From a virus: DNA of 64,000 nucleotides. The translations under genes were made by a program, and so were the position numbers. Positions 3,907 through 62,888 of the stretch are shown piece after piece (positions within the stretch are counted from its first letter, which is position 1; each line of letters starts with the position of its first letter). Location: the IMG/VR virus record IMGVR_UViG_3300012189_000001, positions 5,110 to 69,109 of that record. The stretch is one strand, 5' to 3'. The notes under the pieces were generated by a model. That model saw only the letters and a program-made list of their open reading frames with translations, was not told the DNA's origin and ran no database searches.

Positions 3907-4824
3907 ATGGCAATTTTAGATCTTGCTAGTTTTCAGACATTAGTCGATAGACGTTATCGTGAAATAAAGGATTTTGAGCTTGCGTCTGTCACTGATCAAC
4001 TTCCCTTGTGGTTTGGGATGGAGACTTCAGATACGTTCGAAGAGCGCCGCTCGACTATCGGCGAACTTCCGATATGGGATACCTTCGGCGGTAATCTCCA
4101 GTACACACGTTTTTTCGAGCAGTACAATGCAGTGGCAACGCACATTGAGTTTACGCAGGGACTGCGTTGGACCCGTCGTATGATGGATGACGATCTCACG
4201 GGAATTATGCGTGGGGACCGTTATCGTAAGATGGTGCGTTCTGGTGTTATTACTCGCCAGATTCACGGCGCTCGTCTTTGGAACTTCGCGGCCTCGAATG
4301 ACTCCTTCTTCTATAATCGTTCTGAAGGCGTTCCTCTTGCCTCGGCAGCACACACTACTCGGGCAGACGGTGTGTCAACGGCAACCGGCTTCAACAACAT
4401 CACGGTATCCGATTTAGCTCCTACCTCGTATCGCGCTCTGCGTCAACAGATGCGGCGTTTTGCGAATGATCGCGGGTTCATCATCAATGTTATTCCTGAT
4501 TGCCTCGTTGTGCCAATTGAACTTGAGCAACGGGCTATGGAAATTCAGGACTCTCCCGGCGATGCAGACACCGCTCGTCGTTCCAGCAACCCGGAAGCCA
4601 GCACGGCGTCTATCGAAGTCCCTCTGTATTGGACGTCAACTACCAACTGGGCACTGTGCAATAAAGCATTGATGCATGAGAATCTGATTTGGTTTGACCA
4701 CACAACCCCAGATTTCAACAGCGTCGTGGATTTTGAAACTTTCCAGCTCAAGGCAAGTGGTTATATGCGCTATTCTTGGCTCGCGTTGGACTGGCGGTGG
4801 TTAAGTTACGGCAACGTTTCGTAA
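3907..4824 (+). CDS. Major capsid protein (HK97 fold, Mu gpT-like family)
   Basis: 305 aa with FTQGLRWTRRMMDDD, EGVPLASAAH, IINVIPDCLVVPIELE and GYMRYSWLALDWR, a pattern typical of gpT-like capsids. Confidence 0.85.
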   Translation: MAILDLASFQTLVDRRYREIKDFELASVTDQLPLWFGMETSDTFEERRSTIGELPIWDTFGGNLQYTRFFEQYNAVATHIEFTQGLRWTRRMMDDDLTGIMRGDRYRKMVRSGVITRQIHGARLWNFAASNDSFFYNRSEGVPLASAAHTTRADGVSTATGFNNITVSDLAPTSYRALRQQMRRFANDRGFIINVIPDCLVVPIELEQRAMEIQDSPGDADTARRSSNPEASTASIEVPLYWTSTTNWALCNKALMHENLIWFDHTTPDFNSVVDFETFQLKASGYMRYSWLALDWRWLSYGNVS

Positions 4825-5382
4825 TCCAATTAACTTAGTTGGGTTACTTAGCGTAAGAAGTAAGGGTTGTACGGGAACTAATGGCCCTTTGTCATGTTTA
4901 CTCGCATTGCAACTACGACACGCAGGTACGATATTATGAAGAGTATGTGATCCGCCTTGAGATATCGCGGTAATATGATCCATTTCCAGGCGGATGCACT
5001 CTTTATCGCAGTACGCGCAGCGGTTTTCAAAAGCGATTTTCATTTCTTGCCATTGAGCAGAACTAAAATCGTTTATAGGTGCCCTAGCTTTACGGGCGCG
5101 GCGCGCAATAGTATAGGGTACCTGTTTTTGAGCAAGTTCTTTTCGATGTTGTTCTCTGTAACGACGATTTCGTTCTCGCGCTTCTTTGAGATGAGTTTTA
5201 CGCCATTTATTCATGTCCTGGCGTTTTTGTTCTTTCATTACTTCTTTGTTTGCTGCATATTTAGCGGCATTGAAAACTTGATTGTAGCAAGCATGTGTGC
5301 AATATTGTTTGACGCGGCCACCGCCGCCTTTACGTGGTGTGTATTCGAATGGCGTACCGCAATTAACGCAGAGTTTTTCCAT
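4801..5382 (-). CDS. HNH endonuclease (CxxC/McrA-type) convergent with the MCP
   Basis: CAYCD...MDHITAISQGGSHTLHNIVPACRSCNASK and an N-terminal CVNC...YCTHAC zinc finger. AGGAGG RBS. Confidence 0.9.
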   Translation of the reverse strand: MEKLCVNCGTPFEYTPRKGGGGRVKQYCTHACYNQVFNAAKYAANKEVMKEQKRQDMNKWRKTHLKEARERNRRYREQHRKELAQKQVPYTIARRARKARAPINDFSSAQWQEMKIAFENRCAYCDKECIRLEMDHITAISQGGSHTLHNIVPACRSCNASKHDKGPLVPVQPLLLTLSNPTKLIGLRNVAVT

Positions 5383-8868: not shown

Positions 8869-8876
8869 GTGACGTC

Positions 8877-8903
8877 GGGGCACCTTAAGGTGCCCCTGCT
8901 TTT
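8877..8903 (+). terminator. Rho-independent terminator
   Basis: GGGGCACC-TTAA-GGTGCCCC stem followed by TGCTTTT. Confidence 0.7.
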
Positions 8904-8919
8904 CAGGGAGGATACGAAA

Positions 8920-9093
8920 ATTCCTGCAAAATCGAAGGCTCAGGCGCGGTTCATGTTCGCGGAGATGGGGCGTAAGAAGAAGGGCAAGAAGACAGAAACT
9001 GGTATGAGTGAAGATCAGTTGAAGGATTTCACGAAAACGAAACAAAAAGGTCTTCCCGAAAAAATAAAGAAAACTAAGAAGGGAAAGAAGTGA
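8920..9093 (+). CDS. Small basic DUF3008-like protein with a probable ATT start codon
   Basis: (I/M)PAKSKAQARF...MSEDQLKDFTKTKQKGLPEK resembles the DUF3008 pattern. GGAGG lies 8 nt before the ATT. Confidence 0.7.
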   Translation: MPAKSKAQARFMFAEMGRKKKGKKTETGMSEDQLKDFTKTKQKGLPEKIKKTKKGKK

Positions 9094-9251
9094 TGGCGAA
9101 GGCAATGAAGAAAGAAAAGCACGGCAAGATGTCGGGGCGTACTCCTCACGAAGAGCCACATGAGAAGACGGGTGGCAAGGGCATGATGGAGCAGAAGTCT
9201 CGCGGCAAAAAGGGTGGCAAGTCCAAGAAAATGAGTGGGAAATCCTACTAG
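9093..9251 (+). CDS. 52-aa Lys/Gly/Met-rich basic microprotein (not in ORF track)
   Basis: MAKAMKKEKHGKMSGRTPHEEPHEKTGGKGMMEQKSRGKKGGKSKKMSGKSY, coupled by TGATG. Confidence 0.7.
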   Translation: MAKAMKKEKHGKMSGRTPHEEPHEKTGGKGMMEQKSRGKKGGKSKKMSGKSY

Positions 9252-9265
9252 GGAGATGAGAGATC

Positions 9266-9436
9266 GTGGGGAAGACCTATAAGAACAAGTCATCTTCAAA
9301 GATGTCTGGACGTAGCAGTGAGAAGAGTGGTCGTACTGATGACCCCGATCTCGCTCTTGATATGTTGATGCAGAAGAAACAGAAGTCTACGAGTCGTAAG
9401 GGTATGAAACACAATCAATCGGGACGATCAGAATAA
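9266..9436 (+). CDS. 56-aa Lys/Ser-rich basic microprotein (not in ORF track)
   Basis: GGAG RBS, GTG start. MGKTYKNKSSSKMSGRSSEKSGRTDDPDLALDMLMQKKQKSTSRKGMKHNQSGRSE. Confidence 0.65.
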   Translation: MGKTYKNKSSSKMSGRSSEKSGRTDDPDLALDMLMQKKQKSTSRKGMKHNQSGRSE

Positions 9437-9437
9437 T

Positions 9438-9740
9438 ATGATTGATGAAAGACGTTACACGGTAGAAGACTGTACGGAAGAAGACACGATTTATCTTAAC
9501 GTCCACATATCTCAACAATATGTAGATGGGTATTGTCGTGTCGGCAACCGCATGCTTCAGGGACGATTGGAAGTGAATCCGGCGTGGTTTTCTTCGACAA
9601 ATCTTGAAAAGGCTATTGATACGCAAACGCGTTCGGGTCAGTTGAGCTTGAATGACATGCACGGTTTTGATTGGGAAGCCGATTACAATCTTGAAGATTT
9701 AAAATTGGATTATCCAGTCATTATAACTGAGATGGAATAG
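9438..9740 (+). CDS. Hypothetical acidic protein
   Basis: 100 aa; abuts the ATP-grasp gene. Confidence 0.6.
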   Translation: MIDERRYTVEDCTEEDTIYLNVHISQQYVDGYCRVGNRMLQGRLEVNPAWFSSTNLEKAIDTQTRSGQLSLNDMHGFDWEADYNLEDLKLDYPVIITEME

Positions 9741-11072
9741 ATGCCAAGATTTTTCCTGTGGAGCCCAAACGGTGATGGTGACTGTGTAAGTTACAGGCTT
9801 CATCTTGAGGGCGAAGATGTGGTATTGCGCATCGACGAGGCGTGGTCTCGGCCAAATCTTGAAGGAATTGTCGAGCACACAACGGCGTATCCACGAAAAG
9901 GCGATATCGTCATTTTTGGGTCGAGCAAACTCGGACAGGAAGCGGCGAAACTCCAAAAGGCAGGTTTTGGTGTTATTGGAAGTTGCCCGTATGCGGACGA
10001 TCTTGAAATGGACCGCTGGTTTTTTATTCAAGAATGTAAACGTCTCGGCATTAAAACCCCAGAAACACACCGATTTAACAGTTACGATAAAGCCCGTGCT
10101 TTTGTGCAACAACGGGGTGAGCGGTGGGTGTTTAAACCGTCTGGTGATCAGGAATCTGCCTGTACTTTTGTGGCAAAAGACGATGAAGAACTGCTTTTTG
10201 CGTTTGACCATCTTGAAAAGCAAATTCCAAAGGCTGATTTCCTCCTTCAGCATTTTGAAGAAGGTATTGAAATCTCTCTTGAAGGATGGTTCAACGGGCA
10301 CGATTGGATCAAAAACTCCTGGAATGCCACCAAAGAAACCAAGAAACTCATGGCCGGTGATATCGGACCCGCAACCGGATGTTCGTCAAATGCGGTATAC
10401 TTATTTGAAGGTACCCCGAGTTGGGTTCGCAAACTCCATGATAAATTCACTCCCATGCTTCGACGGGATAAGTACAAAGGCCCTTTTGATCTCAATATGA
10501 TCGTGACGAAGGATGCAATGTATGCATTGGAAGCAACGCCTCGTTTTGGCCTTGAAGGCATTCAAAACTTTATCGAACTCTGGCATACCTCAGCGGGCGA
10601 AACATTTGAAGAGTTGGCCGCTGGTACATTGGGGTCCTTTGACGTTGATACCGCTTCCCTCGCTGCCGCCGTTCGCTTGGCTGTAGGACCCTACCCATTT
10701 GGGAGTAAAGAACACAGGACATCCGGCGATATCCCCGTCCTCATTGATGAAGCTGATACATGGACATTATGGATGTCAGGTGTTTGGAAAGAAGATGATA
10801 TGTATTGTGTCGCTCCTACCGATGGTTGCATTGGTGCGCTCGTAGTGAAAGATACAACGATTGACAGAGCGGCAAAAACGTTGATGGAGACGGCAAAACG
10901 TATTCACATCCCTGATCTTATGTATCGCAATGATGTCGGCGCAGGGCATCTGAAGATGTGGCAAGAGTTAGATGGGTATGGTTTTGACATTCCCCCAGCA
11001 GTCGAGGCTATGCTCAAACGTAAGCCTGTGCTTGATCAGGGATCACCTTTTAAGAAAATGGTATGGGTGTAA
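9741..11072 (+). CDS. PurD (GAR synthetase)-like ATP-grasp ligase, divergent
   Basis: ADDLEMDR..CKRLGIKTP, WVFKPSG, KKLMAGDIGPATG (PurD KR..DGD.GPNTGG) and LEATPRFG (PurD EFN.RFG). Lacks the PurD GSGGREHA and GLAAGKGV motifs. Confidence 0.8.
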   Translation: MPRFFLWSPNGDGDCVSYRLHLEGEDVVLRIDEAWSRPNLEGIVEHTTAYPRKGDIVIFGSSKLGQEAAKLQKAGFGVIGSCPYADDLEMDRWFFIQECKRLGIKTPETHRFNSYDKARAFVQQRGERWVFKPSGDQESACTFVAKDDEELLFAFDHLEKQIPKADFLLQHFEEGIEISLEGWFNGHDWIKNSWNATKETKKLMAGDIGPATGCSSNAVYLFEGTPSWVRKLHDKFTPMLRRDKYKGPFDLNMIVTKDAMYALEATPRFGLEGIQNFIELWHTSAGETFEELAAGTLGSFDVDTASLAAAVRLAVGPYPFGSKEHRTSGDIPVLIDEADTWTLWMSGVWKEDDMYCVAPTDGCIGALVVKDTTIDRAAKTLMETAKRIHIPDLMYRNDVGAGHLKMWQELDGYGFDIPPAVEAMLKRKPVLDQGSPFKKMVWV

Positions 11073-11084
11073 GGAGAATAAGCA

Positions 11085-12122
11085 GTGGCATCCAGTGATT
11101 TTTACCCGTTCGAATCCACTTTTGAAGTGTCAGACTTCACAGAATGGACGAGTACTGTTGATACGCAAAGCAAGATGGAAGTTATCCATCTTCTTGACAT
11201 CGTCAAAAAGTGGGGAAATGGCTTTCCCGGCGTTGCGCCATATCGTGGGAACTATGTCGATCACATCAATATCGCTTTGGGTACGGCTGACGCCTATGCG
11301 CAGACGACAGTGGTAACAGCCGCGCTCGGTACGACGATATGGGTACGATTTTTCTTGCAGGTTACAAATAACCTGGTTATGGCTACAAGTGACCGTTTCA
11401 CCATACTTTCAGTGCAATCTGCTGGTGCAGTTGAGCAAGGCACTATCAGCATTCTCAACAATGTTGGTATTATACAACTTGTCGCAGCACAGACGGGATC
11501 GACTGCCATTGGCGCACTTACGGTACAAGCTGAATTTGAGCGCGATATTTATCACCTTGTTGAACTCGGCATGACCATTGATTCTGGCGCGGCAGACGGC
11601 ACATTACAGTTTTGGTTGGACGGCAATCAGGTGGGTTCGACGATTACTGGATTAACGCAGGCAGCGATTACTCAGATGCGCCTCGGAGCTATAGGCATTG
11701 ATGCAGGCACCACTGCTGGGCATCTCCTATTCGATCAGGTTGTTCAAGCACTTACACACGTTGACGGTTTTTATCGGCGCTACCCCCAAGTTGTAGTGCT
11801 TACAAAGAGCGGATTTATAGCTCTTGGCCCAGGTAAAATCGAAGAATACACGCTTGTGGCCGGTGGGGCTGTCGATAATCATATGAGTGTCTATGATCTC
11901 GACAGACAACCTCTTCTAGGTCTTAGCGATTTTCTCGGCCCAGAGTTGACAAATTCCCATGCGTTTGAAGCAAAGGTATTTGCCTACTCGAAAAAGGATG
12001 GCTATTTCAACAGAGGCTTGTACGTGAGACTGATAGGCACAGCCCCTAGAGCCACAGTGACACTAGGAGCTGGGCAGACGACTTTGGGTACCCTCAGACA
12101 GTACGCCATACGGAAATATTAG
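11085..12122 (+). CDS. Structural protein with a ConA/LamG-like beta-sandwich
   Basis: YHLVEL..IDSGAADGTLQFWLDG motif. AGGAG RBS with GTG start. Confidence 0.6.
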   Translation: MASSDFYPFESTFEVSDFTEWTSTVDTQSKMEVIHLLDIVKKWGNGFPGVAPYRGNYVDHINIALGTADAYAQTTVVTAALGTTIWVRFFLQVTNNLVMATSDRFTILSVQSAGAVEQGTISILNNVGIIQLVAAQTGSTAIGALTVQAEFERDIYHLVELGMTIDSGAADGTLQFWLDGNQVGSTITGLTQAAITQMRLGAIGIDAGTTAGHLLFDQVVQALTHVDGFYRRYPQVVVLTKSGFIALGPGKIEEYTLVAGGAVDNHMSVYDLDRQPLLGLSDFLGPELTNSHAFEAKVFAYSKKDGYFNRGLYVRLIGTAPRATVTLGAGQTTLGTLRQYAIRKY

Positions 12123-12143: not shown

Positions 12144-12935
12144 GTGCGGCGATTACTTTATGCATTCATAACACTTGGTGCTCTACTCTGCGCATCTCAG
12201 GTGTTTGCCCAGCAATCAGTAGGCCCCATAACACTCCAATCGACAGGGGCTATTGGAAATGGTACTGCTCCTTCAACTGTGGGACTTACCCTCGCCACTG
12301 TGCAAGTTGTCGCGGCTGGAGGCTTTGATCGCACCTTGAATTTTGAAGTAACAGAAGATGCTACGAATTATCAAGCTGTATCTTGTTTAAATGTTTCAAC
12401 GAGTATGCAGTCAACGACAGCGACAGTAAGTGGTATTTATACGTGTTCTATTGGTGGGGCTCAGCTTTTTCGAGCGCGAACAAGTGATGGCGCTGCGAAT
12501 GGCACGTTGAAGGTAAGTGTTACATTCAATCAGGGTGTTATTTCTGCAGGCGTTGCATCAGCATCTTCGGGTACAGCTTCATCGACAACATCTGCGGTAT
12601 CGCCTGTTGAAGGGTCAACCCTCTTTAATACTTCTACCGTAAGTGCGGCAGCTACTGCTTTGACGACATCTATCGCGGGAGCTGCAACTACTCGCGTGCA
12701 CCTCTACAGTGCAAGTGCGTACTGCTCAGCAGGTTCAGCAACTTTGACAATCAAAGATGGAGTGGCAGGTACAACGATCTGGGTTTCGCCAGCCGGATTT
12801 GTCGGAACAGTGGTTACATCCCTTACGTGGACTGCCGGTTTGACAAGTACTACAGCGAATGGTATGGATATCGTGCTTGGCTCATGCGGTGGGGCGAATA
12901 CCGGAACATTACAAGTTGAAGCAGATAGATTCTAG
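12144..12935 (+). CDS. Signal-peptide-bearing structural-type protein
   Basis: MRRLLYAFITLGALLCASQVFA|QQ is a Sec/SPI-like leader; the mature part is Thr/Ser/Ala-rich and beta-type. Confidence 0.7.
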   Translation: MRRLLYAFITLGALLCASQVFAQQSVGPITLQSTGAIGNGTAPSTVGLTLATVQVVAAGGFDRTLNFEVTEDATNYQAVSCLNVSTSMQSTTATVSGIYTCSIGGAQLFRARTSDGAANGTLKVSVTFNQGVISAGVASASSGTASSTTSAVSPVEGSTLFNTSTVSAAATALTTSIAGAATTRVHLYSASAYCSAGSATLTIKDGVAGTTIWVSPAGFVGTVVTSLTWTAGLTSTTANGMDIVLGSCGGANTGTLQVEADRF

Positions 12936-12950
12936 CAACAAAGGTGGTCT

Positions 12951-13211
12951 ATGAATCGCGCAGTCGGATATTTCGTTGTGTGTGCGTTGTTCGCGGGAGT
13001 TACAACAGTATTTGCGGAAGATGCCAAACCTTCTAACTGTGCAGAAGACCTCGAAGTAATGAAGCTGGTGTACGCCACTTCTCGGGGCAATGCTGAATCG
13101 TATCTAGAGACCTTGGCACGTACTGATATCAAATTGAAGGCGATTCAAGCACAACTTGCGGAGGCCAACCAGAAAATAAAGGCGTTTGAAGAGACGAAAT
13201 CCAAGGAGTAA
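12951..13211 (+). CDS. Signal-peptide-bearing small coiled-coil protein
   Basis: MNRAVGYFVVCALFAGVTTVFA|ED leader with C-terminal heptads. Confidence 0.65.
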   Translation: MNRAVGYFVVCALFAGVTTVFAEDAKPSNCAEDLEVMKLVYATSRGNAESYLETLARTDIKLKAIQAQLAEANQKIKAFEETKSKE

Positions 13212-13216
13212 ACTCA

Positions 13217-14737
13217 ATGCGAAAATGGTTAGGCAGTCTTCTCATTATTGGGATGATGCTTGTTGCTCAGTCTGTGCAGGCGCAAATAGTGTCACAAATA
13301 CCGTGGACGGCTGGATACGGCGGTACGGGATTTTCGACGTATACGATTGGTGATATGCTGTATGCCGATACAGCAAGTACATTGGCTAAGTTAGTGAGTC
13401 CCGTGACAGGACAAGTTATCACATCTGGTGGAGCAGGAGTCGCACCCGCGTGGAGTGCTAGTCCAACACTTACAACAAGTTTGACAACACCGTTGTTTAT
13501 TGGTGGGACAGCAGTTGGCTCAACACTTACATTCAAGTCAACAAGTGCTGTTGGGACAACCGACGCTATTATTTTTCAAGTTGGAAATAACGGCGGAACT
13601 GAGTCAATGCGCATTATCGACAGCGGCAATGTAGGTATTGGGCAGACAGTGCCGACTGCTTTACTCGATATTAAGGGAACTGCTGCGGGCGCAGAAATGA
13701 TCATAGGTCCTTGGGCTGGAAGTACGGCCTACATGGCAGTTGGCCTCGCTAATTCTGTTGCAGCAACTACCTACAACTTTATAAGTAGTACAACTGACAC
13801 GAATTTGTATCTCAACAGACCAACGGGCAAGGATATTGCTTTTCGAGAGGCCAATCAGGGTAATATCAATGCAGTAATCTTTAGAGGTACGACCGGATTC
13901 GTCGAAATATCGGGGGACGCGGCAAAGACTGTTAGTATGGCCCGCAATCCGGTTGCAAATACCGCAGGAAATGCTCTCACTGTGCAGTCCGGTTCGGCTA
14001 CCTCTGCTGCGACCGATAAAAATGCAGGTACCCTTGTTTTGGCGTCAGGTCTTTCGACAGGTACAGGATCGGGAGGCATAAATCTACAAACATCCTCACA
14101 ACAAGCAACGACAAATACGACTGATAATGCAGTTGCTACACGGCTCGCACTTGACGGATACGGGCATATAACTCACACTCCTGCGGTAGGCACTGCCACT
14201 GTCGCGGCGAGTTTTACGCTCACAGGAGCGGCACACACCGCATTAACTGCGAGTACTGAGCGCTTCGATACCAACTTCAATAGTGCTCGTACTGTGCAAT
14301 GGGCAACAGGGGCATTGACAACTCAACGCTTTAACCTCTTCCAGGCTCCTACAGTCGGTTTTGTCGGCGGCAGTACAATAACGAATACGTGTACCCTCTG
14401 TGTAACTGGAGCTCCAGTATCGGGCACGAATGCAACACTTTCAAGTACGCATGGCTTGCTTATCCAGGCGGGAGCAGTGACAGCAGCAACAAATGCCTTT
14501 GGATTAACGGCAAATGCTCCTACAGGAGGTACCACCAATTACGCTGGGCAGTTTATTGGGGAAGTTCTTTTGGGTTCGACAGCTTTTGCAAGTCTCGGCA
14601 CGCCAGCAAATGGGGCAATAACGTTTTGCAATGATTGTGATGCCCCGACGCTTGTTGATAGTACTTGCACTAGTGCAGGGGCCAAAACAGGTAGTTTTGC
14701 GGTGCGCGCAAACGGAGCCTGGAAGTGCATTTCATAG
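13217..14737 (+). CDS. Signal-peptide-bearing tail-fibre-like protein
   Basis: MRKWLGSLLIIGMMLVAQSVQA|QI leader, GGTG..YTIGDMLYA and RIIDSGNVGIGQTVPTALLDIKG fibre motifs, Cys-rich tip. Confidence 0.75.
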   Translation: MRKWLGSLLIIGMMLVAQSVQAQIVSQIPWTAGYGGTGFSTYTIGDMLYADTASTLAKLVSPVTGQVITSGGAGVAPAWSASPTLTTSLTTPLFIGGTAVGSTLTFKSTSAVGTTDAIIFQVGNNGGTESMRIIDSGNVGIGQTVPTALLDIKGTAAGAEMIIGPWAGSTAYMAVGLANSVAATTYNFISSTTDTNLYLNRPTGKDIAFREANQGNINAVIFRGTTGFVEISGDAAKTVSMARNPVANTAGNALTVQSGSATSAATDKNAGTLVLASGLSTGTGSGGINLQTSSQQATTNTTDNAVATRLALDGYGHITHTPAVGTATVAASFTLTGAAHTALTASTERFDTNFNSARTVQWATGALTTQRFNLFQAPTVGFVGGSTITNTCTLCVTGAPVSGTNATLSSTHGLLIQAGAVTAATNAFGLTANAPTGGTTNYAGQFIGEVLLGSTAFASLGTPANGAITFCNDCDAPTLVDSTCTSAGAKTGSFAVRANGAWKCIS

Positions 14738-14756
14738 GAGGCAAAAACGCAAACAT

Positions 14757-15173
14757 ATGAAGTACTGGATTTTTGTTGTGTTATTTTTACTAGGCGCTAC
14801 GGTAAGTTATGCGCAATATAATGTCGCGCCGCCCACAAGTTGCCCAACTGGGCAATCAATCACATGGGATGGAGCCAATTGGTCCTGTGCTATACAAGTA
14901 CCAAGCGGTTCTATTTTCATGTTTCTCACTGGGTGCCCATCTGGGTTTTCAGAGGTGCAGCAGGCAGCAGGCTCGATGTTACTTTCAACAACTGCCGGGC
15001 AGCAAAATGCTGGGAGTTTTAGTTCTTTTGCTGTGATTACGCCTTCAACAACGAACATACTCAATTCCCAGTTAGGAGGTCGTCCTGTTTTGGGGTTTCC
15101 GCAGGCTGTTCCTGACGCGCTGAATGGGAAGTTTCCAACAACAATACGTGTTATTTTGTGTCAAAAAAACTAA
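14757..15173 (+). CDS. Signal-peptide-bearing protein with a tail-collar-like domain
   Basis: MKYWIFVVLFLLGATVSYA|QY leader; VPSGSIFMFLTGCPSGFSEV is collar-like. Confidence 0.65.
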   Translation: MKYWIFVVLFLLGATVSYAQYNVAPPTSCPTGQSITWDGANWSCAIQVPSGSIFMFLTGCPSGFSEVQQAAGSMLLSTTAGQQNAGSFSSFAVITPSTTNILNSQLGGRPVLGFPQAVPDALNGKFPTTIRVILCQKN

Positions 15174-15187
15174 CAAAGGAGTTTACG

Positions 15188-15652
15188 ATGAAACGTGGAT
15201 TACTGATGACTTTAGTCGGTGGGTTGTTTCTCATGTCCGCTCAGTTTGTGAATGCGCAGGGTATCCCTGGCACTCTGGTACAGCAGACGCCTACACGACT
15301 CGATTCTGCTACTCAGTCAGCGAGCAGCGCAACGTCGGCTGCTACCTTGACGCTGACCCCCAATGGCGGTGAATACGTGTATATTTATGCAGTTGACGTT
15401 GCTAATTGCGCCGGTGCGTCTAACGTGGTTGCCGCTGCACCAACGACGATCACTACGACGAATATTTCTGGATCTCTTAGTTTCACGTTGGGATCTGGCA
15501 CAACTGCGGGTCAATGTACGCAGTTTGAAGCAATAGCCTATCCTACGGGCTTGAAAAGTCAGACATCGGGTGTCGCAACGACGTTTATATTACCGACATT
15601 TGCAACAAATCAAACAGTGCGTTTGAATGTTATCTGGCGTTCTGCACCGTAA
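15188..15652 (+). CDS. Signal-peptide-bearing structural-type protein
   Basis: AAGGAG RBS, MKRGLLMTLVGGLFLMSAQFVNA|QG leader. Resembles the C-terminal domain of the 12144 ORF. Confidence 0.7.
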   Translation: MKRGLLMTLVGGLFLMSAQFVNAQGIPGTLVQQTPTRLDSATQSASSATSAATLTLTPNGGEYVYIYAVDVANCAGASNVVAAAPTTITTTNISGSLSFTLGSGTTAGQCTQFEAIAYPTGLKSQTSGVATTFILPTFATNQTVRLNVIWRSAP

Positions 15653-15661
15653 GGACGAGAC

Positions 15662-16333
15662 GTGACCACCCTTGCAGTTCTTGTCAACGAACTTCGACCA
15701 CGAGCACAGCGGCTGGGTCTCCAAGATCCAGTCACTGGGCTCGTCGATGATAGCGAATTATCAACATATCTCGTAGAATCAATGCGATATTTGGCGAATC
15801 GTTATCAGTTGCAGCATTTCATACGGATTAATCGCCAGCTCTTCATTACCCAAGCCAATGTTGAGCAATATGATATCCCAGATAACTACGGTTTCTGGTC
15901 ACCAGAAGAAACCTATCGCTCGGGCTTGTCTGTAACAAATACGGATGGTACGCAGACAACGAATTTGACGTATTACAATCCGGCAAAGTTCAACCTAGTA
16001 CGGAGTCCTGGGCTGACCAACAAGCCCTCATGGTTTACGGTAACGCAAGGATTGATATACTTTGCACCAATACCGGATGCCTCCTACATTATTGAGGCTA
16101 TTGAGCGACAGGTGCAGGACGGAACAGATATCCCCGTGCCTTATGCAGAGGCAATTAAGATTGAAGCCCTGCTGAAACTGGCATCTGACACCGGAAAAGT
16201 TACACCTTTGCTTGTCGATGAGCACACACAGATTCTGCGGACCCTTGTAAATGGGGAGTCTCGTTTTCGCCAGAGATTCTACACCTCACGCGAGCGTTTA
16301 GGGTTCAGTCGCTATAGGCGATATGGCCTGTAA
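15662..16333 (+). CDS. Head-tail adaptor/tail ring protein, paralogue 1
   Basis: YDIPDNYG...[25 protein letters not shown] adaptor motif. Confidence 0.7.
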
Positions 16334-16828
16334 TTGTTTCTTTGTTCGTCTTGGTCGTCTGTTATTTGCTTGCTCTTTACGAGTTGCCCATCGACAGTTT
16401 TTTAGGCTGTAAGGACCGTTGTTATCTATACGTTCTAGAGTATGATAAGGAGACGGCCTTTCACCTACATCCGCACAAAAGGTTTTTAAGTTATGCCAGC
16501 GTTCGTCAACAAAAATACCCCTTCCTCCGTAGTCGGGGTAGGATTTATTTGTCGGTGTATAGCAGCGTTTCATAAGGTTGTACCAAGTTTTACAATTTGG
16601 AGTATAACATAGTCCATGTTTTGTCTGTCTTTGTATAACACCTTCTAATTTAAGACAGCCACAACTTTGAGAGCGGCCACATCTAAGTCGATGGCCATAA
16701 ACAGGTTTTTGTGTTCCACAGTCACACTGGCACATCCATATCGCATTGCCATTTTTTGTGCTACAATAGTGTAAAACTGTCCAACGCCCAAAACGGTGTC
16801 CATTAATATCTTTTGTGTGATTAGTCAT
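16298..16828 (-). CDS. Free-standing HNH homing endonuclease, antisense to the tail operon
   Basis: [60 protein letters not shown]. Confidence 0.9.
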
Positions 16829-16835
16829 GTTGAAC

Positions 16836-16864
16836 AGTATACCAAGAACGGATAGGATTGTCAA
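16836..16864 (-). promoter_or_regulatory. Near-consensus sigma70 promoter predicting a leaderless HNH mRNA
   Basis: TTGACA-17-TATACT-7 nt-ATG; no SD. Confidence 0.75.
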
Positions 16865-17462: not shown

Positions 17463-18074
17463 ATGTTGAAATTTTCAGACCTTGTAGACATCATGATCCA
17501 GCGAGCAGAGCGTCTTGGTCTCGTCGAGCCCGATTCGAAAAAAGCCGACGCGGCAGAGATTGAACTTTATCTATTTCAAGCGCTCCTCGACATTACTGAC
17601 GGCGGGGATTTGCCTGCCTACATGATACAAAATACGTCCATTGCTACGACAACAATCGGAGTGGCACAGTATCCTCTTCCCGCAGATTTTGGGCGTCTGA
17701 TTACCCCCCGTGTGCAGAACAAGCGGGGTATCTATCTATTCGACACGTTTGAAATAGACGACTTGACGTATATTGAACCGAATGCGTTTGCCCGACAGGT
17801 ATCCACAACGAATGCCAAGCCGGAGCAGTTTACGGTCACACAGCGGAATCTATTCGTGTTCCCAACACCTGACAAAAACACCTACACGATTCGCGGTCTC
17901 TATATCCAACGTGTAGATCGACCCGAACTTGATGATGAGGTATTGATTATGTACCCCACAGCCCTCATTGATGAAGGGCTTTTTCGTCTGGCGTCGGACA
18001 TGAATCGCGCTACCCAAGCACTTACAATAATGCGCACAGAAGCTCTGGCGCGACTTACAGGGGGATCGAGGTAA
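17463..18074 (+). CDS. Head-tail adaptor/tail ring protein, paralogue 2
   Basis: RAERLGL and YPLPADFG...KPEQFTVTQRNLFVFPTPDKNTYTI; clearly similar to 15662. Confidence 0.75.
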   Translation: MLKFSDLVDIMIQRAERLGLVEPDSKKADAAEIELYLFQALLDITDGGDLPAYMIQNTSIATTTIGVAQYPLPADFGRLITPRVQNKRGIYLFDTFEIDDLTYIEPNAFARQVSTTNAKPEQFTVTQRNLFVFPTPDKNTYTIRGLYIQRVDRPELDDEVLIMYPTALIDEGLFRLASDMNRATQALTIMRTEALARLTGGSR

Positions 18075-21181: not shown

Positions 21182-21847
21182 GTGAATCTTGGCGCTCTTG
21201 TAACTCTCGTGGAACAGAAATTAGGCAGTCAAACTACTTTTTATACCGATGCTGAAATCGTAGACCATGGGATTAACCCCGCGCAGCGACTTATATGTCT
21301 GACCTATCCTATGCTGAATTATGTGCGTACAACGGTAGCTGTCACGACGGATCAGCCAATTATTGACTTGCGAGAACTGCTTGACGGAAGCCTGAATATT
21401 ATTGGAAACCGATTTCGCCATGTGCGCCGTGTTTCTCTGGGCAATGTGACAGACAACCTTTCAACGCCCACTGCGGCAACTGGAGAGTTGCAAAAATTGG
21501 AACAGACAACAGTGAAACGCCTCGCCGGGCGTAATGACTGGTTCGCTTTGCACGGCGAAGTGCGAAAGTATTGGATGTGGGGTCAATACTTCCTTGGTGT
21601 GTATAAACGACCCATCGCTGCGACAACCTTGACGATCATATACAGCGCCGCTCCTGCTCCTCTTGCTCTTGCAGCACCAACAGGCATCCCAGACATTCCC
21701 GCTGTCTACCACCCTGTTATCGCGGAAATTGCCACGGGTTTGCTGATTATGAAAGAAGGTGCTCCACAGACAGAGCGTGGATTGGCCCGAATTAAAGCAG
21801 GATTAAATCTCGCACTACAAGATCCTGTCGCAGAAAGGCTAGGATAG
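21182..21847 (+). CDS. Adaptor/tail ring protein, paralogue 3
   Basis: MNLGALVTLV...GEVRKYW...LGVYKRP...PDIPAVYHPVI. Confidence 0.65.
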   Translation: MNLGALVTLVEQKLGSQTTFYTDAEIVDHGINPAQRLICLTYPMLNYVRTTVAVTTDQPIIDLRELLDGSLNIIGNRFRHVRRVSLGNVTDNLSTPTAATGELQKLEQTTVKRLAGRNDWFALHGEVRKYWMWGQYFLGVYKRPIAATTLTIIYSAAPAPLALAAPTGIPDIPAVYHPVIAEIATGLLIMKEGAPQTERGLARIKAGLNLALQDPVAERLG

Positions 21848-22491
21848 TGACCACTCTTGCCAATGAAATCACCCGTGTGCAACTCATGCTTCAAGATATT
21901 GATGTATCAGGCGGTAATATCACCCTGATAACTCAGTCAATCACTGAAGCTGCTCAGAAACTTGCGCGGCTAAATTACTTTCCACAAATCAGTTGGCTGC
22001 AAGGGATCACAGGCCAGAGTATCTACACATTGCCCGCCACCAATGTGAATATATCACATGTATTGTACAATGAAAAAGTTTTACGCTACGTTACTGAATC
22101 TTCCTTTGATCGACATATCACTGGATGGGAAAAACTCATAGGGGAACCTCGATACTGGACATACGACAACATTACACGAAATACCGTGCGGATCATCCCT
22201 GCCCCTTCGCGCACCGGAGCGGTTGTGGTGTTTGATCCTGATGACCCACTCGCCAATGCGGGTGTGAATAATTTAATTGTGTTCGCATCTGATGATGTGA
22301 GCGCTAACCTTGGCGCTGTTGTTATGCCCACGCTTCTTGATTATGATGACTTTATCGTGTATTATGGGGTATATTTACACGCAATGAAGGAAACAACTCA
22401 ACAGAATCAGCCTGTAGCCAATGCTGCAAACTTACTAGCAGAAATGTGGCTTCAACTCATGGAAAAGAGGAAAGCTAGTGGCCCGAACTAA
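21847..22491 (+). CDS. Adaptor/tail ring protein, paralogue 4
   Basis: GQSIYTLP...GEPRYWTYD...VRIIPAP. Confidence 0.65.
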   Translation: MTTLANEITRVQLMLQDIDVSGGNITLITQSITEAAQKLARLNYFPQISWLQGITGQSIYTLPATNVNISHVLYNEKVLRYVTESSFDRHITGWEKLIGEPRYWTYDNITRNTVRIIPAPSRTGAVVVFDPDDPLANAGVNNLIVFASDDVSANLGAVVMPTLLDYDDFIVYYGVYLHAMKETTQQNQPVANAANLLAEMWLQLMEKRKASGPN

Positions 22492-37473: not shown

Positions 37474-37824
37474 CTACTGACAGCGATCACACGCCACTTC
37501 TTGGATTGTTATTTGCTTCTCACAACCATACGTCTTTGCATAGGCCAAAGCGAATGCGACCATAAACCGCGTCATTGGGTGCCAGAAGCTCACTTTCTCA
37601 ATGACAGGCTCTCGACACCAGGCCACCTCATGTGTTGGACACCAAAGCATCACACCAGGCGTAACAGTGCGATCTTCCAAAGGAGTTTCAAGAGCTTTGT
37701 CGATGGACCATCCAAGTTTTACCAAACGAAACCACAACGTTTTTTGGTCACATCCTTTTCGACGTGCCCACGCAGTCATAGAGAGCTTTTCACCCTGATA
37801 CGTGTAATATGTACACTTTGGCAC
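37474..37824 (-). CDS. DNA-binding protein resembling a homing-endonuclease C-terminal module, plus Cys/His motifs
   Basis: YQGEKLSMTAWARRKG...RLVKLGWSIDKAL; CPTH and CDRC. Confidence 0.55.
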   Translation of the reverse strand: MPKCTYYTYQGEKLSMTAWARRKGCDQKTLWFRLVKLGWSIDKALETPLEDRTVTPGVMLWCPTHEVAWCREPVIEKVSFWHPMTRFMVAFALAYAKTYGCEKQITIQEVACDRCQ

Positions 37825-62279: not shown

Positions 62280-62888
62280 GTGGCGATGAAACAGCTTCAA
62301 AATCAAGAAGATACAGGCATGGCGTGGCTGAAAAAATTGACGCCGAAGCAGCGCTCTTTTGCCGAGATGTATGCGGTGCACGGGAATGGCAGCAAAGCGG
62401 TGTTACTGGCTGGGTATGAGACTGCGAATGATGGCCATGACATTGCCAATGCTCTCAGACATAATCCCCTAGTGCTCCAGGCTATTGAGTATTATCGCGC
62501 TTTGTTTGCCAGCGAGTCTGATTTCAGTCCTGAGAAGGTGCTCAAGTCCCTCGCTGAGATGGCCTCTGTGGATGTCTCAGCCTTCGTGACGGATGAGTGG
62601 GACCTACGACCTAAAGGGCAACTGAGCGAGGCACAGAGGAGGGCTCTCGTCGGTCTAGAGGTCATTGAGAAGAAGGATGGCCGCACAGTCAAACCCAAAT
62701 TTGCCAAGCTGGAGGCTCTTAAGGAGCTGGCAAAGATCATGGGGATGTATGCAGATGTGGACGAGAATCGAAAGGATGGGCTGGCAATCACGATTAACCT
62801 CGGCCAGCAAGTCAACGTTAATGGTGAGGTTGCGGCTGAGGAGGTAGCGGTTGGACATCTACGGATCGGGAAAGCCCACTCGGAGTGA
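62280..62888 (+). CDS. terS: Terminase small subunit (start 62280 or 62319)
   Basis: LTPKQRSFAEMY..GNGSKAVLLAGY...LRHNPLV...KLEALKELAKIMGMY. Confidence 0.85.
   Translation: MAMKQLQNQEDTGMAWLKKLTPKQRSFAEMYAVHGNGSKAVLLAGYETANDGHDIANALRHNPLVLQAIEYYRALFASESDFSPEKVLKSLAEMASVDVSAFVTDEWDLRPKGQLSEAQRRALVGLEVIEKKDGRTVKPKFAKLEALKELAKIMGMYADVDENRKDGLAITINLGQQVNVNGEVAAEEVAVGHLRIGKAHSE

Follow-up and report, generated by a model that had tools for sequence, protein, structure and literature searches.

Predicted Sec signal peptides on five consecutive fibre-, collar- and jelly-roll-type late genes of a novel tailed phage

The stretch of DNA analysed here, called the window in what follows, comprises 64,000 nucleotides (bases 5110-69109) of the IMG/VR virus record IMGVR_UViG_3300012189_000001, a 69,109-bp genome with terminal repeats that is rated complete. 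Positions 12144-15652 of the window hold a cassette of five consecutive genes, designated below by their first positions (12144, 12951, 13217, 14757 and 15188), each of which encodes a product that opens with a predicted cleavable leader. Judged from the sequences, export by the Sec pathway and cleavage by signal peptidase I (SPI) appear secure and folding in an oxidising compartment likely, a combined claim that we hold with high confidence, and the five products very probably fold outside the cytoplasm. As to their role, we tentatively favour exported binders that are not part of the virion and act on the host envelope; gene structure, the leaders and their conservation, the cysteine pattern, kinship with fibres and modelled self-association are shown, whereas we infer that the products are exported, where they end up, what they bind and how the phage profits.

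Tailed phages are taught as assembling wholly in the cytoplasm, and their fibres are treated as cytoplasmic proteins in host-range prediction and engineering. What the window contains is a fibre-type cassette that carries export signals together with the cysteine signature of an oxidising compartment, and the same habit is found in unrelated uncultured phages.

Leaders of the five genes

All five open reading frames (ORFs) lie on the plus strand, gene 1 at 12144-12935, gene 2 at 12951-13211, gene 3 at 13217-14737, gene 4 at 14757-15173 and gene 5 at 15188-15652, and each follows a Shine-Dalgarno-like motif (in gene order AAGGAG, AAGGTGG, AAGGAG, TAGGAGG and AAGGAG). A signal peptide is defined, with the -3/-1 rule of von Heijne, by a positive n-region, an uncharged h-region and small residues at -3 and -1, over some 18-30 residues. 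Our leader heuristic, a home-made rule set, requires that the n-region be positive, the hydrophobic core uncharged and the residues at -3 and -1 small, and allows no proline at +1; it was run on 98 greedily chosen ORFs from the whole 69,109-bp genome. By these rules, all five products have leaders of 19-23 residues with the n/h/c layout, a hydrophobic core of 8-9 uncharged residues and an AxA-type site, which is the Sec/SPI pattern. With a slash at the predicted cleavage site, the N-termini read MRRLLYAFITLGALLCASQVFA/QQ (12144), MNRAVGYFVVCALFAGVTTVFA/ED (12951), MRKWLGSLLIIGMMLVAQSVQA/QI (13217), MKYWIFVVLFLLGATVSYA/QY (14757) and MKRGLLMTLVGGLFLMSAQFVNA/QG (15188). An earlier note on this DNA, made from the letters alone, had described five such ORFs with leaders and AxA-like sites, and both the ribosome-binding sites (RBS) and the scan of the 98 ORFs confirm that description.

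These are the only five ORFs that score above 5 at an RBS-backed start. A score of at least 4.5, an n-region charge of at least +1 and an RBS come together in none of the remaining 93, and simple arithmetic gives a probability of 1.7e-6 that five leader genes would be consecutive by chance among 93. The concern, raised in the earlier note, that the true starts might lie 3' of the leaders is answered by the in-frame downstream starts, none of which has an RBS. A lipobox (cysteine at +1), the mark of signal peptidase II substrates, is present in none of the five genes. There is no Tat consensus either: 12144 has an RR pair, but its relatives read KK.

Homologues keep the leaders. In the 12144 family this is true of all five non-self relatives, whose leaders have diverged in sequence and end before the same invariant glutamine. 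In the 15188 family, a leader of likewise diverged sequence is found in 55 of the 57 relatives, the two misses being one 5'-truncated entry and one hydrophobic leader that the rule rejected, and P0003, a full-length relative of 13217 (56% identity), keeps it as well. Among the 14757 matches the rule finds a leader in 19 of 33, and by eye several more have leaders behind mis-called starts or are membrane anchors. Cleavage is predicted before glutamine in four of the five products (before glutamate in 12951), and this glutamine at +1 is invariant in the alignment of the 12144 family and at least 90% conserved in that of the 15188 family. Finally, the AlphaFold2 (AF2) model of 15188 sets the leader apart from the fold, as a helix (residues 4-20) followed by a linker of low confidence. 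Because the pattern is conserved without the sequence, and because of this detached helix and the cysteine signature described below, the leaders look like genuine Sec/SPI signals.

Cysteines and the folding compartment

The mature parts of the five proteins contain 1.64 cysteines per 100 aa versus 0.27 in 22 flanking late proteins, about six times as many, and the counts are mostly even (4, 1, 6, 4 and 2 in 12144, 12951, 13217, 14757 and 15188, respectively). In the 15188 family, conservation of C74 and C110 reaches at least 90%. The fibre-like 13217 has relatives of both kinds: of the 119 listed, 96 are leaderless and have long N-terminal regions and 23 have a leader-like N-terminus, so that the statement of the earlier note that fibres lack signal peptides was too absolute. 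An even and non-zero number of cysteines is found in 19 of the 23 leader-bearing relatives versus 32 of the 96 leaderless ones, and the cysteine density is higher in the leader-bearing proteins (Mann-Whitney p = 0.0013). The difference can be followed down to a single motif of the fibre module: C-T-[LV]-C is present in 4 of 12 modules in the leader-bearing lineage versus 1 of 36 others, and the single exception among these 36 is P0002, an N-truncated orthologue. In 13217 itself C-T-L-C is found at residues 390-395 (window 14383-14400), where leaderless relatives read A-T-[VL]-A. On these alignments, the fibre lineage seems to have gained its cysteine pair along with the export signal, and the enrichment and pairing of cysteines point to an oxidising compartment.

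The Bacteroidota O-glycosylation motif D-[ST]-[AILVMT] is not enriched in the exported products, with 3 occurrences in 1039 mature residues for about 3.4 expected; its density is 0.29 per 100 aa in the mature cassette proteins and 0.37 in the flanking proteins.

The five products

Gene 3 (13217-14737, plus strand) encodes a fibre-like protein of 506 aa with a 22-aa leader ending VQA/Q, a cysteine-rich C-terminus and six cysteines. The fibre motifs that the earlier note had quoted for it, as well as the collar motif quoted for 14757, are all present; in 13217 the shaft motifs GGTG and GNVGIG lie in YGGTGFSTYTIGD and SGNVGIGQTVPTALLDIKG. It has 177 relatives, some of which carry precomputed Pfam Peptidase_S74, collagen, fibrinogen or T9SS-tail domains, and it shares with its fibre relatives a module of the form TALTASTERFD...QAPT.GFVG; 13217 itself has no Pfam match. 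Residues 35-174 align with residues 405-544 of P0033 (58% identity, E 9e-33) and residues 40-236 with residues 100-306 of P0023 (52% identity, E 1e-37), both of them leaderless fibre-like proteins. By its shaft and its module, 13217 is, as far as sequence can tell, a fibre and a kin of phage tail fibres. The homology to the leaderless fibres begins about 12 residues past the cleavage site, and the first 100-400 residues of those proteins have no counterpart in 13217. The N-terminal region of known fibres is the end that attaches to the virion, and 13217 is predicted to be a fibre without that attachment end. Of the solved chains, 13217 matches one by sequence, the fibre Bd2133 of Bdellovibrio (E 0.01, 80 residues, 125-204). 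A paralogous relationship with the phage's own 470-aa fibre-like protein was considered and is not established (34% identity over 121 residues, E 0.078).

Gene 4 (14757-15173, plus strand) encodes 138 aa with a 19-aa leader ending SYA/Q, an N-terminal Cys-loop, a C-terminal C-x-K-N and four cysteines. The collar-type motif PSGxIxMF..CPSGF is found in VPSGSIFMFLTGCPSGF. A phmmer search against 1.84 billion representatives returned 34 matches. The family layout is a Cys-loop module, a PxGxIxMF..CPxGW motif and a C-x-K-[ND] end, with C29, C60 and P61 invariant and C44 and C135 nearly so, and the small relatives open with a leader or a membrane anchor. Pfam Gp10_C is matched by two of ten family members (best E 2.4e-6), 14757 itself matches no Pfam family at E of 0.1 or below, and the family profile matches the solved tail fibre 9qgo_A weakly (E 0.069). 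One further protein, P0187 (162 aa), opens like 14757 in its leader and some 28 mature residues (residues 1-47, 67% identity) and goes on with an unrelated Thr/Asn-rich body; the exchange point lies directly after the N-terminal Cys-loop module.

Gene 5 (15188-15652, plus strand) encodes 154 aa. A 23-aa leader ending VNA/Q is followed by an N-terminal stretch that is flexible but conserved and by a jelly roll of eight strands with two conserved cysteines. The AF2 model, built from 40 sequences, has a predicted local distance difference test (pLDDT) score of 84.3 and shows the helix at 4-20, low confidence up to about residue 40 and then the eight strands. The protein models as a self-associating trimer, with a score of 0.56 (runs of 0.46, 0.56 and 0.74) against 0.00 for the best of three controls, in a set-up that differs from the calibration of the tool; at least 74% of the contacts are shared between runs and the partner pLDDT is at least 76. 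Fold comparisons gave generic matches (Foldseek against the PDB, template-modelling (TM) scores of 0.21-0.37; VIA, best Z 7.8; BFVD, best TM 0.55 to an uncharacterised Curvibacter phage protein). Within about one Z unit stand satellite-virus coats, nucleoplasmin, phage cement proteins, TNF-like ligands, the Bd2133 tip, Ena pilins and XepA. No fold family was assigned to 15188, since it matches only generic jelly rolls.

Gene 1 (12144-12935, plus strand) encodes 263 aa, with a 22-aa leader ending VFA/Q and a mature two-domain beta protein with four cysteines. Of its five non-self relatives, four are 53-67% identical and the fifth, P0126, is 43% identical over 53% of the query; none is annotated. 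Q23, C194, C248 and F263 are invariant among the seven aligned members. Residues 7-116 match the N-terminus of P0011 (33% identity, E 7e-10), a metagenome protein of 592 aa that consists of a leader, the first domain of 12144, a 13217-type module and a C-terminal domain also present in the leaderless P0006 and P0020. The cassette members 12144 and 13217 are linked by this fusion of genes. The nearest ESM Atlas clusters of 12144 are about 90% viral, and residues 23-130 align (TM 0.83) to a 115-aa Atlas cluster in which 30% of the members are Pfam XepA, which we regard as a weak lead. The invariant C-terminal phenylalanine (codon 12933-12935) recalls the ends of outer-membrane proteins. An outer-membrane barrel was rejected for this protein: by eye the alternation before the phenylalanine is out of register, and the Atlas model is a two-domain sandwich.

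Gene 2 (12951-13211, plus strand) encodes 86 aa, with a 22-aa leader ending VFA/E and a charged mature part of 64 aa with one cysteine. The mature part is probably helical. The protein has a single weak PHROG match to a helical stretch (E 0.0093), no Pfam match and no relative in the loci fetched. Its outline, an N-terminal hydrophobic segment followed by a charged part, fits the inner-membrane half of a spanin pair; no ORF with a lipobox is embedded in it or adjacent to it, and no family match supports a spanin.

The view of the earlier note that most mature parts are of virion type is borne out for several of them, namely by the shaft of 13217, the motif of the 14757 family, the 12144 domain in P0011 and the jelly roll of 15188.

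Distribution of the jelly-roll family

The 15188 family comprises 57 relatives of about 150 aa each and was found in 8 IMG/VR viral loci and 25 metagenome loci. It had no match in a peptide-pattern scan of 185,579 species genomes nor in 50,697 GenBank phage records, and the 12144 family likewise had none in a pattern scan of the 185,579 species genomes; since each of the two species-genome scans used one or two peptide patterns, an absence from bacterial genomes is only suggested. The 30 ESM Atlas clusters nearest to 15188 are 95-100% viral. Members are 45-68% identical across contigs of 47-71% guanine plus cytosine (G+C), and the other window proteins, capsid proteins included, have no BLAST match in the 15188-carrying contigs at E 1e-3. 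Conservation within the family far exceeds that of the capsid proteins in its carrier phages. Tandem paralogues occur in the loci L003, L005/L006, L007, L012, L016, L024 and L028. Genes within two positions of a family member have leaders in 14 of 45 cases versus 9 of 99 elsewhere in the loci (Fisher p = 0.0024; crude gene calls in the 21 loci with a called member among 28 non-duplicate loci).

The genomic context of the family is variable. In L005 (5050-6311) and L006 (9589-10850), which are a complete 96.5-kb phage record and a relative, two 15188-family genes and a third small leader-bearing gene stand next to, and are divergent from, the genes for replication protein O and the DnaB helicase, and the family lies outside the structural block. 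In L002 and its close relative L004, the family follows a capsid-protease fusion gene of the Phage_capsid_4 type by about 3-5 kb (Pfam and PHROG searches on L002 only). In L007 it comes a few kb after a capsid gene of this type and before a PHROG 'virion structural protein'. L035 has a leader-bearing gene like 12144, flanked on one side by the gene that follows the capsid gene and on the other by a head-tail connector-like gene. The capsid family of the window, PF25209 (Phage_capsid_4), was found in none of five further records, of which one is complete and four are fragments. With this patchy distribution and variable context, a moron trait that we find for this family only, 15188 behaves like a mobile accessory gene. 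A role in capsid decoration was considered: 15188 has the small size, the jelly roll and the modelled oligomerisation of decoration proteins, all generic features, and lacks their constant link to a capsid lineage or head block. The replication-gene context, the 0 of 5 records with PF25209 and the conservation above that of the capsids weaken the assignment. The complete 96.5-kb record also encodes a 612-aa protein with a papain-type Peptidase_C1 domain.

Genomic setting of the cassette

The phage is a novel tailed phage. No similar DNA was found among the 50,697 GenBank phage records, and IMG/VR, scanned with one protein at a time (13217 and the products of the adaptor-like and 345-aa genes described below), gave no close phage relative. 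The only near relative retrieved, the metagenome contig L010, is 98-99% identical to the window and too close to inform.

The cassette is placed between the major capsid protein gene (3907-4824, plus strand; Pfam Mu-like_gpT/Phage_capsid_4, with tblastn matches to annotated phage major head proteins) and an SU10_adaptor-like gene (15662-16333, plus strand; Pfam PF24175), so that Pfam and tblastn support the position given in the earlier note. The adaptor-like gene follows directly, after a 9-nt gap. Directly 5' of the cassette, 21 nt away and in the same transcription unit, stands a 345-aa gene (11085-12122, plus strand) with no Pfam or PHROG match. Both neighbours lack cysteines and leaders, and the leader scan bears out that the flanking structural proteins are leaderless. 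Intergenic gaps are 5-19 nt inside the cassette and 5-21 nt with the flanks included, and the G+C content is flat across 12144-15652 and like that of the flanks. Consensus scans of 12144-15652 gave no good promoter and no terminator comparable to the strongest terminator-like hairpin upstream (8877-8896, plus strand). For lack of such signals inside it, the cassette appears co-transcribed with its structural neighbours, and the five genes appear to be real late genes.

Four paralogues of the SU10_adaptor type are encoded (15662-16333, 17463-18074, 21182-21847 and 21847-22491; PF24175 E-values 1.4e-6, 2.1e-10, 9.8e-11 and 3.2e-10), where a phage normally has one adaptor. Each adjoins different small or fibre-like genes, and separate fibre sets might dock on the extra copies. 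The late region 3' of the cassette also contains lectin-like genes, leaderless fibre-like and tail genes and the gene for a 920-aa internal virion protein with an SLT domain.

Possible roles of the exported products

Leaders of 19-23 residues and an SLT-bearing ejection protein suggest, in general terms, a diderm host, which would make the periplasm the first destination of the five products. We tentatively favour an action on the host envelope. The Sec machinery of the host would move the products across the inner membrane, signal peptidase I would cut the leaders, in four of five cases before glutamine, and the products would fold with disulfide bonds outside the cytoplasm. The resulting kit of parts would contain the shaft protein of a trimeric fibre (13217), a collar-motif protein (14757), a self-associating jelly roll (15188), a two-domain beta protein (12144) and a short charged protein (12951). 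Late in infection, the phage would in this way load the periplasm with soluble or envelope-associated binders, which may act on host envelope structures from the inside or on debris and neighbouring cells after lysis. By occupying receptors or glycans, for instance, they could save progeny from loss on debris and keep rival phages out. We prefer such an accessory role outside the virion because 15188 behaves like a mobile accessory gene, because 13217 is without the N-terminal region of its leaderless kin and because the phage has leaderless tail gear of its own.

Several observations weigh against this proposal. In contrast to classical morons, the cassette lacks its own promoter and terminator by the consensus scans, matches its surroundings in G+C content and is part of a structural unit. 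The folds are those of virion hardware, and leader genes lie between capsid and neck genes in the window, in L002/L004, in L007 and in L035. None of the five products has a lipobox, unlike Llp or Cor, and late expression would be odd timing for exclusion. In a diderm host Sec alone leads to the periplasm only, and the leaders were called by a rule set of our own making. In addition, 13217 resembles the phage's own 470-aa fibre-like protein in the shaft stretch only and not at the C-terminus, so that the comparison does not support competition between the two for one receptor.

Alternatively, the fibre, the collar protein, the jelly-roll trimer and their partners may mature in the periplasm and dock on finished particles at holin opening or after lysis, to become fibres of the head or neck or a decoration. 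We consider this possible but unlikely. It would account for the co-transcription of the cassette between the capsid and adaptor-like genes, for the recurrence of the capsid-to-neck slot in L002/L004, L007 and L035, and for the combination of a fibre shaft, a collar motif and a cement-like jelly roll (Pam1 7eel_H, Z 7.2, and KHP40 7dou_4, Z 7.0, tied with unrelated proteins); the trimer model of 15188 passes (0.56 versus 0.00 for the control), and the four adaptor-like paralogues could give docking sites. However, the 15188 family also stands beside replication genes in a complete phage and is much better conserved than the capsids of its carriers, PF25209 is present in 0 of 5 other records (four of them fragments), 13217 has no equivalent of the N-terminal region of its leaderless kin, the phage has leaderless tail genes of its own, and a limited literature search found no publication on such a route for tailed phages. 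Holin lesions open the inner membrane, and a part of the tailed-phage particle could in principle be built outside the cytoplasm, being exported, trimmed before glutamine, oxidised and attached at holin opening or after lysis, perhaps through one of the four adaptor-like paralogues; this statement about the particle itself we judge rather doubtful. For the exported fibre kit of the earlier note, the leaders hold, as does the architecture of several mature parts; the kit may join virions or stay on the cell, and the evidence leans away from an obligatory virion part.

The exported set could also help egress by weakening or reorganising peptidoglycan or the outer membrane, as do spanins or XepA, an 'exported protein' of PBSX. 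The late operon would suit this, as would the inner-membrane-spanin outline and single cysteine of 12951, and no endolysin, holin or spanin was recognised among about 65 window ORFs scanned with Pfam and/or PHROGs, the only wall-cutting domain being the SLT domain inside the 920-aa internal virion protein. Yet there is no lipoprotein partner or lipobox, small ORFs were scanned only in part so that lysis genes may have gone unrecognised, and we know of no lysis role for fibre shafts or collar motifs. PMC6834076 describes XepA as cytotoxic and likens its N-domain to C2 folds that bind membranes, and weak XepA fold leads exist for 12144 (residues 23-130, ESM Atlas) and 15188 (VIA Z 6.2), but these matches are within the range of unrelated jelly rolls. 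A role in egress is in our estimate improbable. It is more improbable still that the leaders serve neither export nor cleavage by SPI, being uncleaved anchors, pro-peptides cut by a phage protease or an over-reading of the rules. The leaders were called by a home-made heuristic only, and there is a precedent in Porphyromonas phages, where the authors of PMC10367356 take signal peptides predicted on capsid proteins to be likely cut by the prohead protease. Against this stand the short uncharged cores (8-9 residues) and AxA-type sites of all five leaders, the conservation of pattern rather than sequence in the families, the enrichment and pairing of cysteines and the detachment of the leader helix from the fold in the AF2 model.

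Relation to described systems

T5 Llp, Cor of T1, phi80 and N15, and lambda Lom and Bor are exported, Sec-dependent proteins that are encoded among late or tail genes and act on the host envelope; Llp and Cor block receptors and are encoded beside tail genes. These are single small lipoproteins or an outer-membrane barrel, whereas the cassette encodes five SPI-type products with no lipobox and with fibre, collar and jelly-roll architecture, and no homology of the Llp, Cor, Lom or Bor type was found in Pfam and PHROG searches. With leaderless tail fibres (P0023, P0033 and the Peptidase_S74 kin) 13217 has the shaft in common, at 52-58% identity over 140-208 residues, but the N-terminal region is replaced by a leader and paired cysteines have been acquired. 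The 14757 family shares the motif PxGxIxMF...CPxGW with the C-terminal domain of T4 gp10 (Gp10_C, PF21939), and its longer members add an HxH stretch; 14757 lacks the HxH insert, and its family opens with leaders or anchors. The cement proteins of Pam1 and KHP40 and TNF-like knobs resemble 15188 in size, in the eight-stranded jelly roll and in its modelled self-association, but the cement proteins are leaderless, their Z scores of 7.0-7.2 are tied with those of unrelated proteins, and the 15188 family is bound neither to one capsid family nor to the structural block.

By analogy, the nearest described system in working principle would be the mosaic adhesive trimer (MAT) fibre of Bdellovibrio bacteriovorus (such as Bd2133, PDB 8OND/8OK3), which likewise combines a leader with phage-fibre architecture outside the cytoplasm. 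According to PMC10769870, full-length Bd2133 was produced with a PelB leader in front of residues 21-1031, and MAT fibres localise to the Bdellovibrio surface. Its beta-sandwich tip is among the matches of the 15188 jelly roll (Z 6.7). MAT fibres are, in that account, bacterial proteins of about 1000 aa with an invariant N-terminal anchor domain, whereas the cassette belongs to a phage late operon and its fibre has 506 aa, in which the Pfam search identified no such anchor; the match between Bd2133 and 13217 is marginal (E 0.01), and membership in the MAT group is not established.

Glutamine at +1 recalls the Q-rule signal peptides of Bacteroidetes (PMC5837995 and PMC10653852). Phages of Porphyromonas gingivalis have Q-rule signal-peptide genes of unknown function in which SPI cleavage exposes the glutamine (Matrishin et al. 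2023, PMC10367356). Four of the five cassette genes agree with them in this residue; the phage genes of that paper are not presented there as fibre-like or as a cassette in a virion block. Relatives of 15188 keep the glutamine at +1 even on contigs with as much as 71% G+C, and the residue may therefore mark the family rather than the host.

Our limited literature search found no description of exported fibre cassettes or of periplasmic virion assembly in tailed phages. If the products are not virion parts, they would form a new class of phage-made envelope binders, which could explain the avoidance of debris or the shielding of infected cells. If they are virion parts, the textbook account of assembly would gain an addition, with the periplasm as a folding compartment for virion appendages, and disulfide-stabilised fibres would become a design option. 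In either case, proteins of the 15188, 12144 and 14757 types form large families without Pfam or PHROG annotation, of which the first two are mainly viral by their ESM Atlas labels.

Other features of the genome

Genes for replication and nucleotide metabolism form an arm on the minus strand, and the small terminase gene is at 62280-62888. The transcription unit of the cassette opens after the 8877-8896 terminator; the interval 8869-11072 contains three Lys-rich micro-ORFs, a 100-aa acidic ORF and the gene for a 443-aa ATP-grasp protein (GARS_A match, E 2.4e-8). A 51-aa ORF at 696-851, with an RBS and one hydrophobic stretch but without a positive n-region, is by the leader rule the only other RBS-backed membrane-like N-terminus in the genome and could encode a small membrane protein.

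Compared with L010, the window has a 529-bp insertion (16334-16862) exactly between the stop codon of the adaptor-like gene and the next gene. It holds nearly all of a minus-strand 188-aa ORF (16298-16864) whose 3' end overlaps the adaptor gene, and which is cysteine-rich and has HNH/AP2-like motifs by eye but no Pfam family. In view of the insertion and these motifs, this looks like a presence/absence polymorphism of a homing endonuclease. Two further minus-strand ORFs lie close to plus-strand genes: one (4801-5382) overlaps the end of the capsid gene, and the other (37474-37824), which sits in or beside plus-strand late genes, matches a PHROG HNH endonuclease.

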